Origin: Escherichia coli
Lineage (GTDB): Bacteria; Pseudomonadota; Gammaproteobacteria; Enterobacterales; Enterobacteriaceae
Direction: 5' to 3' (one strand)
DNA length: 64,000 bases
Assembly: GCF_050320075.1 (NCBI RefSeq)
Contig: NZ_CP190018.1
The notes below the pieces were generated by a model. The model worked only from the letters and a program-made list of their open reading frames with translations. It was not told the origin of the DNA and ran no database searches. Position numbers and translations under genes: made by a program. Below are positions 60,808-64,000 of the stretch, piece by piece; position 1 is the stretch's first letter, and each line of letters starts with the position of its first letter.

Positions 60808-62876
<2,069 letters not shown>

Positions 62877-62907
62877 ATAAAACGGGAGGCGAAGGTGCCT
62901 CCTGTTT

Positions 62908-63204
62908 TTAGATTGTTTTCAATTGATTGATAATGAAAGGATTCGCTTGCAAAAGCAGGAGCAATTTTCGGGGTGCTCCGGTAGGTTGACGGCGTTTGGT
63001 TTCCCAGCTTTTGACCAGGTCATAACTTACCCCTACGGCGACAGCAAAATCTTGCTGACGTAAACCCGTTGCTTCACGGATCGCTTTTACATCGATTTCG
63101 CTAAAAGTATGGACGTGCTCTGGTTCAGGCGCTTCTTCACCCTTTTCGATGCGTACCATTTCTTCTGCGCTGGCAAGAAGATCAGCAAATAATTCGTCTT
63201 TCAT
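62908..63204 (-). CDS. XRE-family HTH antitoxin (HigA-like)
   Basis: 98 aa; HTH region IREATGLRQQDFAVAVGVSYDLVKSWETKRRQPTG; lies 58 bp downstream of the toxin-like ORF on the same strand. Confidence 0.75.
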   Translation of the reverse strand: MKDELFADLLASAEEMVRIEKGEEAPEPEHVHTFSEIDVKAIREATGLRQQDFAVAVGVSYDLVKSWETKRRQPTGAPRKLLLLLQANPFIINQLKTI

Positions 63205-63262
63205 CTGTTTTCAATGCCTCCGTTGGCATTTCGGCCATGGTGGAATTTGTGGAGCTTCAACA

Positions 63263-63580
63263 TTAAAGCAGCTTCTCGGACAATAGTTTCAATGCCTTTC
63301 TTTGTTCTTCTGTTAAATCATCCTGTTCATTTTTAGGATAAATCAACGCCAGATAAATTCGGCCATTGCGTGTTACGTTGTAATAAATTATCCGAATGCC
63401 ACCCCGTTTCCCCATTCCAGAACGGTTCCAGCGAATTTTTCTAAAACTGCCTGTGCCTGCGATAATGTCACCGGCAGTGGGATCTTGAATGAGTAGTTCC
63501 TGAAAAGCCCGGAACTCATCATCAGGTAACAATAACTGGCGGCGTTTGCTAAATCCTTGTAGTTCAATAAACGTGAACAT
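63263..63580 (-). CDS. RelE/ParE-superfamily toxin of the Gp49/HigB-like type
   Basis: 105 aa; motif KRGGIRIIYYNVTRNGRIYLALIYPKNEQDDLTEEQ typical of Gp49/HigB-like toxins; toxin-first order. Confidence 0.75.
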   Translation of the reverse strand: MFTFIELQGFSKRRQLLLPDDEFRAFQELLIQDPTAGDIIAGTGSFRKIRWNRSGMGKRGGIRIIYYNVTRNGRIYLALIYPKNEQDDLTEEQRKALKLLSEKLL

Positions 63581-63653
63581 AATGCATCCTGCGGTCTATT
63601 GATAATTATAAGTGTACCGTGTACATATTGGTAGCTAATTAGATATAAAAAAA

Positions 63654-63677
63654 CCCCTTATCCGTTTGGATAAGGGG
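63654..63677 (-). terminator. rho-independent terminator of pck
   Basis: ccccttatcc-gttt-ggataagggg preceded on + by a 7-A run (a U-run on the pck strand), 20 nt after the pck stop. Confidence 0.65.
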
Positions 63678-63696
63678 TCAATGAGATTTCAGCTGA

Positions 63697-64000
63697 TTAC
63701 AGCTTCGGACCAGCCGCTACCAGCGCGGCACCCGCAGGGGTGTCGGTGTATTTATCGAAGTTGTCGATAAACAGTTTCGCCAGCGTTTCAGCTTTTTCCT
63801 GCCACTGTTCCGGAGAGGCGTAGGTGTTACGCGGATCGAGAATCTTCGTGTCTACGCCCGGCAGTTCTGTTGGGATCGCCAGGTTAAACATCGGCAGAGT
63901 GAAGGTTTCTGCGTTATCCAGCGAACCGTTGAGGATGGCGTCGATAATGGCGCGGGTATCTTTAATGGAGATACGTTTGCCAGTGCCGTTCCAGCCGGTG
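63697..64000 (-). CDS. pck: phosphoenolpyruvate carboxykinase (ATP), 3' part only
   Basis: C-terminus ...[63 protein letters not shown] matches Pck; the gene runs off the right edge. Confidence 0.9.

Follow-up and report, generated by a model that had tools for sequence, protein, structure and literature searches.

A probable HigBA2-family toxin-antitoxin operon at the polymorphic envZ-pckA spacer of Escherichia coli

Members of the HigBA2 family of toxin-antitoxin systems from Vibrio cholerae and Acinetobacter baumannii have been found experimentally to be toxic, neutralised by their antitoxin and autorepressed (PMC5416850, PMC11006873, PMC5906591). The active site of the V. cholerae toxin (VcHigB2) consists of R51, R64, Y82 and K84, with alanine substitutions of these residues cutting activity 170- to 3000-fold, and the segment 65-IIYY-68 is the strand that slides upon antitoxin binding (PMC5416850). 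The operator footprinted for its antitoxin (VcHigA2) is TGTACGC-N5-GCGTACA, located between the -35 and -10 elements (PMC11006873). HigBA2 of A. baumannii, carried on pAB120, has been shown to be toxic to E. coli, to be neutralised by its antitoxin HigA2 and to stabilise a plasmid; it is also autorepressed, more strongly so by the complex, and was reported to degrade free RNA in vitro (PMC5906591). No literature was found on a pair of this kind between envZ and pckA of E. coli, nor on the accessions of its proteins, with 'Toxin HigB-2/Antitoxin HigA-2' appearing for E. coli isolates only in automated gene lists (PMC10304320).

The window is the whole stretch of E. coli DNA that was analysed, 64,000 nucleotides in length. 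Within it, the entire gap between the stop of envZ (62876, plus strand) and the stop codon of pckA (63697-63699, minus strand) extends over 62877-63696 and is occupied by two ORFs, both on the minus strand. Their lengths (105 and 98 aa) and the motifs GGIRIIYY and YLALIYPKN were exactly as described in the initial annotation of this locus. The segment and its two genes are as follows:

62909-63695, no strand assigned: allele-specific segment of ~787 bp, delimited by alignment to strain ST540, by the 75-bp spacer of K-12 and by composition
63263-63580, minus strand: higB2-like toxin gene, 105 aa, PF06296 RelE/HigB-2 family (ORF, Pfam, PDB, PGAP and UniRef)
62908-63204, minus strand: higA2/nadS-like antitoxin gene, 98 aa (NCBIfam, Pfam, PDB and PGAP)

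The spacer between pck (b3403) and envZ (b3404) of K-12 MG1655 is only 75 bp in length and contains neither gene, in agreement with the initial annotation. Alignment to the empty-site strain ST540 showed that ~787 bp in the window stand in place of ~45 bp, with the G+C content of the allele-specific segment being 42-46% versus 53-62% for its flanks. The junctions of the occupied allele are those of a plain swap of the ~45 bp in which the envZ-side terminator is kept, and neither a target-site duplication nor mobile-element ends were identified at the allele boundaries, there being no direct repeats and no duplicated ends. The string TAATG..TTGAAGCT comes after the stop of pck in the empty allele and after that of the toxin in the occupied one, but this was discounted, as the chance expectation for an 8-mer match is ~0.5. 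No Rfam families were detected within 62500-64000 at E<=0.1. The genes adjoining the pair are core housekeeping genes, with no defence island.

The toxin gene product gave a single match to Pfam, namely PF06296 ('RelE', HigB-2 family) with an E value of 1e-5. In the PDB it matched V. cholerae HigB-2 (5ja9; E 1.3e-23), the alignment being ungapped with 48 of 98 residues identical (49%). Residues R50, R63, Y81 and K83 of the toxin correspond to R51, R64, Y82 and K84 of VcHigB2, all four being identical, and IIYY at positions 64-67 is likewise identical to the 65-IIYY-68 strand. Across 21 intact homologues these four active-site residues are invariant, with the strand taking the form R(I/V/M)IY(Y/F). 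The earlier assignment to a toxin-first RelE/ParE-superfamily toxin was thus upheld by both the structural and the Pfam match, but not the label Gp49/HigB-like that accompanied it: Gp49 (PF05973) gave no match even at E<=10, and the correct family is PF06296, HigB-2. No NCBIfam or PADLOC model was found to match the toxin. In RefSeq (PGAP) it is named 'type II toxin-antitoxin system RelE/ParE family toxin' (WP_000493756.1), and the exact sequence carries the name 'Toxin HigB-2' in UniRef.

The antitoxin consists of an N-terminal predicted neutralising segment and a C-terminal XRE helix-turn-helix. It was recognised by the NCBIfam model NadS (NF041265) with 75.2 bits against a cut-off of 60, and the Pfam models HTH_31/HTH_3 placed the helix-turn-helix at residues 39-76; together with the HigA-2 matches, these bear out its initial description as an XRE-type antitoxin. 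As a single sequence it matched VcHigA-2 in the PDB with an E value of 2.7e-4, and a family profile built from 13 sequences did so end to end over residues 3-95 with an E value of 4.7e-9. The first 23 residues are nearly invariant among homologues, the N-terminal segment reading MKDELFADLLASAEEMVRIEKGE. RefSeq (PGAP) lists the protein as 'nadS, NadS family protein' (WP_000650973.1), a name for which no origin was found in the literature. Two other identities were considered and rejected. Assignment to MqsA (TIGR03830 / PF15731) fails with a score of 31.3 bits where 61.8 are required, a Pfam E value of 0.11 and the lack of any cysteine in the 98 residues. Assignment to YiaG (PRK10072 equivalog) fails with 65.6 bits, the cut-off being 110, and 38% identity to K-12 YiaG, and by these sequence comparisons the antitoxin is a paralogue of YiaG and not an orthologue. 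In E. coli, a sensitive blastn search revealed no paralogue of the antitoxin gene at the DNA level.

The two genes lie in the order toxin, antitoxin on the same strand and are predicted to form an operon, the order being alike in all 26 related loci. Homology of the toxin, the active site with its IIYY strand, the toxin-first order and an antitoxin of HigA2 type were all found here, as is characteristic of HigBA2/PF06296. Five further elements were located around these genes:

63645-63679, minus strand: intrinsic terminator of pckA, with an 11-12 bp stem and U7 (terminator scan; fold -20.5 kcal/mol, z -5.0)
63613-63625, no strand assigned: predicted operator, the 13-bp palindrome TGTAC-ACG-GTACA, its end 2 bp ahead of the -10 box, unique in the window and conserved in related loci
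63605-63610, minus strand: -10 hexamer TATAAT, consensus, of the predicted operon promoter (from sequence, with its position matching a -10-like element in homologous loci)
63587-63590, minus strand: toxin ribosome-binding site AGGA, 6 nt 5' of the ATG (from sequence, with CAGG(G/A)A conserved in homologous loci)
62879-62908, both strands: bidirectional terminator of envZ (plus) and the antitoxin gene (minus) (scan of both strands; folds -15.5 and -19 kcal/mol; z -5.9 and -5.1)

Read along the coding strand, the pckA stop is followed by the hairpin and U7 terminator, then by TGTACACGGTACA (63613-63625) and, after 2 bases, by the TATAAT that had been noted initially on this strand. AGGA and the toxin ATG (63580) come next, then a 58-bp spacer with GGAGG and the antitoxin ATG (63204), with the stop codon of the antitoxin leading into the bidirectional terminator that this gene has in common with envZ. 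Besides the ribosome-binding site, no conserved element or internal promoter was found in the toxin-antitoxin spacer, and such spacers range from -4 to 85 bp across the loci.

The sequence tgtacacggtacac at 63612-63625 (coding strand) can be read in two ways, as a direct repeat, GTACAC-G-GTACAC, and as a palindrome whose 5-bp arms match perfectly. A single copy of the pattern TGTACNNNGTACA is present in the 64-kb window, the expectation from shuffles being 0.00. When 27 related loci of other species and genera were compared (~6.3 kb each), TGTAC-N3-GTACA was found in 24 of them, with every copy situated in the 100 nt that precede the start codon of the toxin and none elsewhere in the ~6.3 kb of each locus. 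Across these loci the arms of the palindrome are invariant and its 3-bp spacer is free, which at the sequence level is the mark of a site bound by a protein dimer, and this is very probably the operator of the pair. An upstream repeat had initially been proposed as the autoregulatory operator; the repeat is real and the proposal is supported, but the relevant symmetry is that of the palindrome TGTAC-ACG-GTACA, which is conserved across genera.

Most of the related loci possess two palindromes flanking a -35 of the TTGA type, with 1-2 bp separating the end of the promoter-proximal copy from the -10. In Escherichia, Citrobacter and Kluyvera, the envZ-pckA alleles possess the proximal copy only, as the distal position is filled by the pckA terminator. 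No -35 could be recognised for the E. coli promoter, and because of this poor element the TATAAT promoter was not called by a simple promoter scan. The level of expression is uncertain, given the lack of a recognisable -35 and the presence of a single palindrome where most relatives have two. The terminator at 63645-63679 belongs to the occupied allele and is missing from the empty one, with a homologous hairpin present at each of the syntenic loci of Citrobacter gillenii, C. portucalensis, Kluyvera ascorbata and K. sichuanensis. The terminator at 62879-62908 is conserved in the empty allele, where it serves envZ and pckA. Read-through from pck, raised initially as a possible source of transcription for the pair, is unlikely to be its main route of expression as this strong predicted pckA terminator intervenes.

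The segment was found in 1,330 of 5,426 complete E. coli genomes (24.5%) at 97.5-100% identity, and in these carriers it is chromosomal, single-copy and located at the envZ-pckA site without exception. Carriers include O104:H4 C227-11, KO11FL, ABU 83972 and Nissle 1917, and both proteins of the window are identical to RefSeq proteins present in more than 1,000 contigs. Most of the non-carrier genomes have the 75-bp empty spacer. The spacer in E. coli is thus a three-allele polymorphic site, with an empty allele (~75%), the toxin-antitoxin pair and a three-gene cassette (0.4%). Strain BS-04 possesses an odd allele that looks like an error-ridden or decayed copy.

Outside of E. coli, the pair was also identified between pckA and envZ in E. 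albertii and in the four Citrobacter and Kluyvera species named above. It occurs at unrelated sites in Leclercia, Klebsiella, Enterobacter, Yersinia, Photorhabdus, Edwardsiella and several marine gamma-proteobacteria. Toxin homologues of less than 60% identity are present on ~900 plasmids (mainly of Acinetobacter, Ralstonia and Klebsiella), of which the Acinetobacter plasmids form the largest group with 306 of 900 records, and on a few phages. The initial annotation had described the pair as inserted between envZ and pck. Its position is correct, but insertion is not established: as the same site is occupied in Citrobacter, Kluyvera and E. albertii, the pair is an old presence/absence polymorphism, with which loss in K-12 and gain in the lineage of the window are both compatible.

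Comparison of the E. coli genes to their syntenic counterparts in Citrobacter and Kluyvera gave a dN/dS of 0.04-0.06 for the toxin gene and of 0.01-0.05 for the antitoxin gene, with synonymous sites being saturated, and purifying selection on both is strong. Across Enterobacterales, antitoxins are 84-94% identical to the E. coli protein and toxins 69-83%. Both genes are intact in 21 of 26 species representatives, and in the remaining five a truncated or frameshifted toxin lies beside an intact antitoxin. The reverse, a broken antitoxin with an intact toxin, was seen in none of the 26 representatives and in none of the E. coli genomes examined. This one-sided decay is the pattern predicted by a genuine toxin-antitoxin dependency.

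Examples of such decay were found both between and within species. In Kluyvera sichuanensis a clean in-frame deletion has reduced the toxin to a stub of 28 aa, with the promoter, palindrome and antitoxin remaining intact. In 106 E. coli genomes, including that of Nissle 1917, the toxin has a nonsense mutation at codon 22 (E22stop) accompanied by a 7-bp deletion, and the antitoxin is intact. The deletion takes out one arm of the palindrome, and what is lost is a single repeat unit of GTACAC(G)GTACAC, the direct repeat that looks like the substrate of this event. The deletion is present in 108 E. coli genomes in total, two of which have an intact toxin. The undeleted promoter allele is present in 1,221 E. 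coli genomes, that of the window included, and the toxin ORF is intact in those members that were sampled.

Taken as a whole, it is highly likely that the pair forms an intact type II toxin-antitoxin operon on the chromosome and belongs to the HigBA2 family, and a mechanism can be proposed for it by homology. The toxin would enter the ribosomal A site and cut translated mRNA by means of the RelE-like residues R50, R63, Y81 and K83, and would be neutralised by the folding of the N-terminal segment of the antitoxin onto it. The antitoxin would dimerise through its C-terminal XRE helix-turn-helix and bind TGTAC-N3-GTACA abutting the -10, causing autorepression of the operon, with the toxin probably acting as co-repressor as in Acinetobacter. 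Proteolysis, dilution or loss of the antitoxin may then free the toxin and result in translation arrest. The basis for this reading is homology, conservation of catalytic residues, gene order, purifying selection, the conserved operator motif and one-sided decay; toxicity, ribosome dependence, mRNA cleavage, DNA binding and the trigger are what we infer for the pair.

Other readings of the same observations were weighed. It is extremely improbable that these are chance ORFs or an inert remnant without a functional pair. The weak -35, the single operator left and the dead alleles of some lineages would fit such a remnant, but both ORFs are full length and shared identically by the many RefSeq contigs noted above, both proteins have strong homology to solved structures, selection on them is strongly purifying and the palindrome is complete in the allele of the window. 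A role in anti-phage abortive infection or defence, in place of selfish or stress-related addiction and with the HigBA2 mechanism unchanged, is unlikely. It would draw on the discussion of RelE/ParE-superfamily modules as defence toxins (PMC11980606), on the strong matches of the two proteins to phage-borne families (phrog_5869, E 1e-33, and phrog_2104, E 3e-27) and on the nature of the locus as a variable hotspot with alternative cargo; against it, the toxin has no PADLOC defence model and its neighbours are housekeeping genes.

The better conservation of the antitoxin and its outliving of the toxin in five species and 106 E. coli genomes also bear on the view that the locus mainly houses a transcription factor, NadS, acting as a wider regulator or as an 'anti-addiction' shield against plasmid homologues, with the toxin as dispensable baggage. 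K-12 possesses a relative that stands alone, YiaG, a 'nadS' is annotated by PGAP in BW25113 (PMC12350097), and homologous toxins are carried on ~900 plasmids. We nevertheless consider this view quite improbable, as the toxin of the window is intact with a dN/dS of ~0.05 and every catalytic residue kept, and the great majority of carriers (1,221 of ~1,330) retain the non-deleted promoter allele. No further targets were seen for such a regulator, the palindrome occurring once in the 64-kb window and being absent upstream of K-12 yiaG, and retention of the antitoxin after toxin loss is equally predicted by simple constraints on the order of decay. A related proposal, which we regard as doubtful, is that the NadS antitoxin is being domesticated, either as a stand-alone regulator or as an anti-addiction factor that cross-neutralises or cross-represses plasmid or phage HigBA2. 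Its higher conservation relative to the toxin, operator arms that are unchanged from Escherichia to Photobacterium, and its survival after toxin loss would fit this; in Nissle 1917 the toxin is lost and half of the operator is deleted too, with the antitoxin kept. Were domestication to be occurring, such alleles would represent natural intermediates towards orphan regulators of the YiaG/NadS type.

As a toxin-antitoxin operon of the HigBA2 family, the pair is of a known and ordinary kind, the family and the exact proteins having already been named correctly in RefSeq and UniRef. It is of little weight beyond bookkeeping, being a database-annotated accessory module of a structurally solved family. 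Only mildly new are the operator consensus across genera, the reversed ranking by which the antitoxin is better conserved than the toxin, and the natural series of decay. TGTAC-N3-GTACA can be taken directly as the predicted operator throughout the NadS/HigA2 branch in Enterobacterales, and the toxin-dead or operator-deleted alleles (those of Nissle 1917, ABU 83972-like strains and Kluyvera sichuanensis) are material for the study of decay into orphan regulators.

Among described systems, HigB2/HigA2 of V. cholerae (5ja8, 5ja9, 5jaa, 5j9i, 8a0w, 8a0x) is a toxin-first operon like the E. coli pair, and HigA2 agrees with the E. coli antitoxin in length and layout, yet the two are only 27% identical. 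The predicted E. coli operator resembles that of VcHigA2 in its outer arms and placement but is 13 bp rather than 19 bp in length, with half-sites 6 bp closer together. Of the base-contacting residues R68, E71, N72 and R77 of VcHigA2, which are D, K, S and R in the E. coli antitoxin, one of four is kept. As both these residues and the half-site spacing differ from those of Vibrio, the binding geometry would not be simply transferable from a complex of the 8a0x type. The E. coli pair further differs in the 58-bp spacer that separates its genes and in its location between core genes on the main chromosome, the Vibrio pair being on chromosome II (PMC5416850). HigBA2 of A. baumannii, which bears the same family name in the literature, is plasmid-borne and less than 60% identical to the E. 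coli pair.

The relE-yiaG modules (Gerdes 2025, PMC11980606) likewise have a PF06296 toxin upstream of a YiaG-like helix-turn-helix protein, although their toxins possess extended disordered N-termini that are lacking in the 105-aa E. coli toxin. The yiaG gene of K-12 stands alone without a toxin partner.

MqsR/MqsA is also arranged toxin-first, with the E. coli toxin lying outside the MqsR family. The C-terminal helix-turn-helix of the E. coli antitoxin resembles the C-domain of MqsA (TIGR03830, E 1.4e-7, residues 28-95), albeit below the cut-off, but the protein has no cysteines and so does not possess the zinc-binding N-domain of MqsA. MqsA binds a short-spaced palindrome, ACCT-N3-AGGT, of which there are two in its promoter, and it is this two-palindrome promoter that most NadS loci resemble.

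Besides the empty spacer and the toxin-antitoxin pair, a third allele was identified at the envZ-pckA site, namely a cassette of three genes, all on the envZ strand, of which one encodes a protein of the SMI1/KNR4 family and the other two encode hypothetical proteins. Of the 5,426 complete E. coli genomes, 20 carry this allele. A search of its three proteins from strain WL297 against NCBIfam returned a match for none of them. Its presence as a third allele at the same site shows the envZ-pckA spacer to be a small multi-allele hotspot. The variants located on individual loci are as follows, with coordinates being those of each comparison locus.

6178-8867 of L003, envZ strand: third allele, 2.7-kb cassette in the envZ-pckA spacer of E. 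coli WL297
2581-6313 of L004: tandem alleles in Escherichia albertii NBRC 107761 (type strain)
3001-3084 of L030: 28-aa toxin stub at the pckA-envZ site of Kluyvera sichuanensis
2500-3160 of L036 (E. coli BS-04), and genome H184 (HS-02): odd allele with a partial antitoxin-gene match

In the type strain of E. albertii, the toxin-antitoxin pair and the three-gene cassette were found to be both present. Here, pckA is followed by the pair, then by 3’ fragments of first envZ (240 bp) and then pckA (58 bp), and lastly by the cassette. The toxin is 100% identical to that of E. coli, with the toxin-antitoxin segment being 96.9% identical to the window and the cassette 88.8% identical to that of WL297. 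This arrangement looks like a fossil of recombination, in which a fragment consisting of the end of pckA, the pair and the end of envZ entered a locus already bearing the cassette.

Forms of the pair with a broken toxin were also identified. A dead-toxin allele is common to 106 E. coli genomes, including M16807 (L031) and Nissle 1917 (H105), in which GAT GAG of the toxin gene is replaced by AAG TAG, giving a stop at codon 22. The same allele possesses a 7-bp deletion causing the loss of one arm of the predicted operator palindrome, while its nadS is intact; two further genomes, FCI1 (L032) among them, share the 7-bp deletion and keep the toxin intact. In K. sichuanensis, an internal in-frame deletion has reduced the toxin to the stub, behind which lies an intact nadS. 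Toxins of Photorhabdus bodei, Photobacterium ganghwense, Phytobacter ursingii and Enterobacteriaceae bacterium B14 (L025-L028) were frameshifted or truncated, with their antitoxins intact. As these loci illustrate, decay of the toxin gives rise to orphan antitoxins. For BS-04 and HS-02, a clean match was limited to the final 46-49 bp of the antitoxin gene, and the 690 bp spacer of BS-04 contains a garbled toxin-like ORF; these alleles reflect either heavy decay or assembly error.

A literature search for the origin of the name NadS found none. In K-12 BW25113, PGAP annotates a ‘nadS’ gene (RS26030), for which first expression evidence has been described (PMC12350097), indicating that K-12, which lacks the envZ-pckA pair, has a NadS-family gene elsewhere. 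A toxin identical to that of the window was found on NZ_OL790696.1, an E. coli entry of 4.8 Mb in PLSDB that is evidently a chromosome despite its listing in this plasmid collection. The toxin protein matches this record at two places, and thus some E. coli may carry a second, more distant PF06296 paralogue.

Among the related loci (L005-L024), antitoxins of Enterobacterales were 84-94% identical to the E. coli protein, compared to 69-83% for toxins. The antitoxin is better conserved than the toxin across this order, the opposite of the pattern usual for type II modules.
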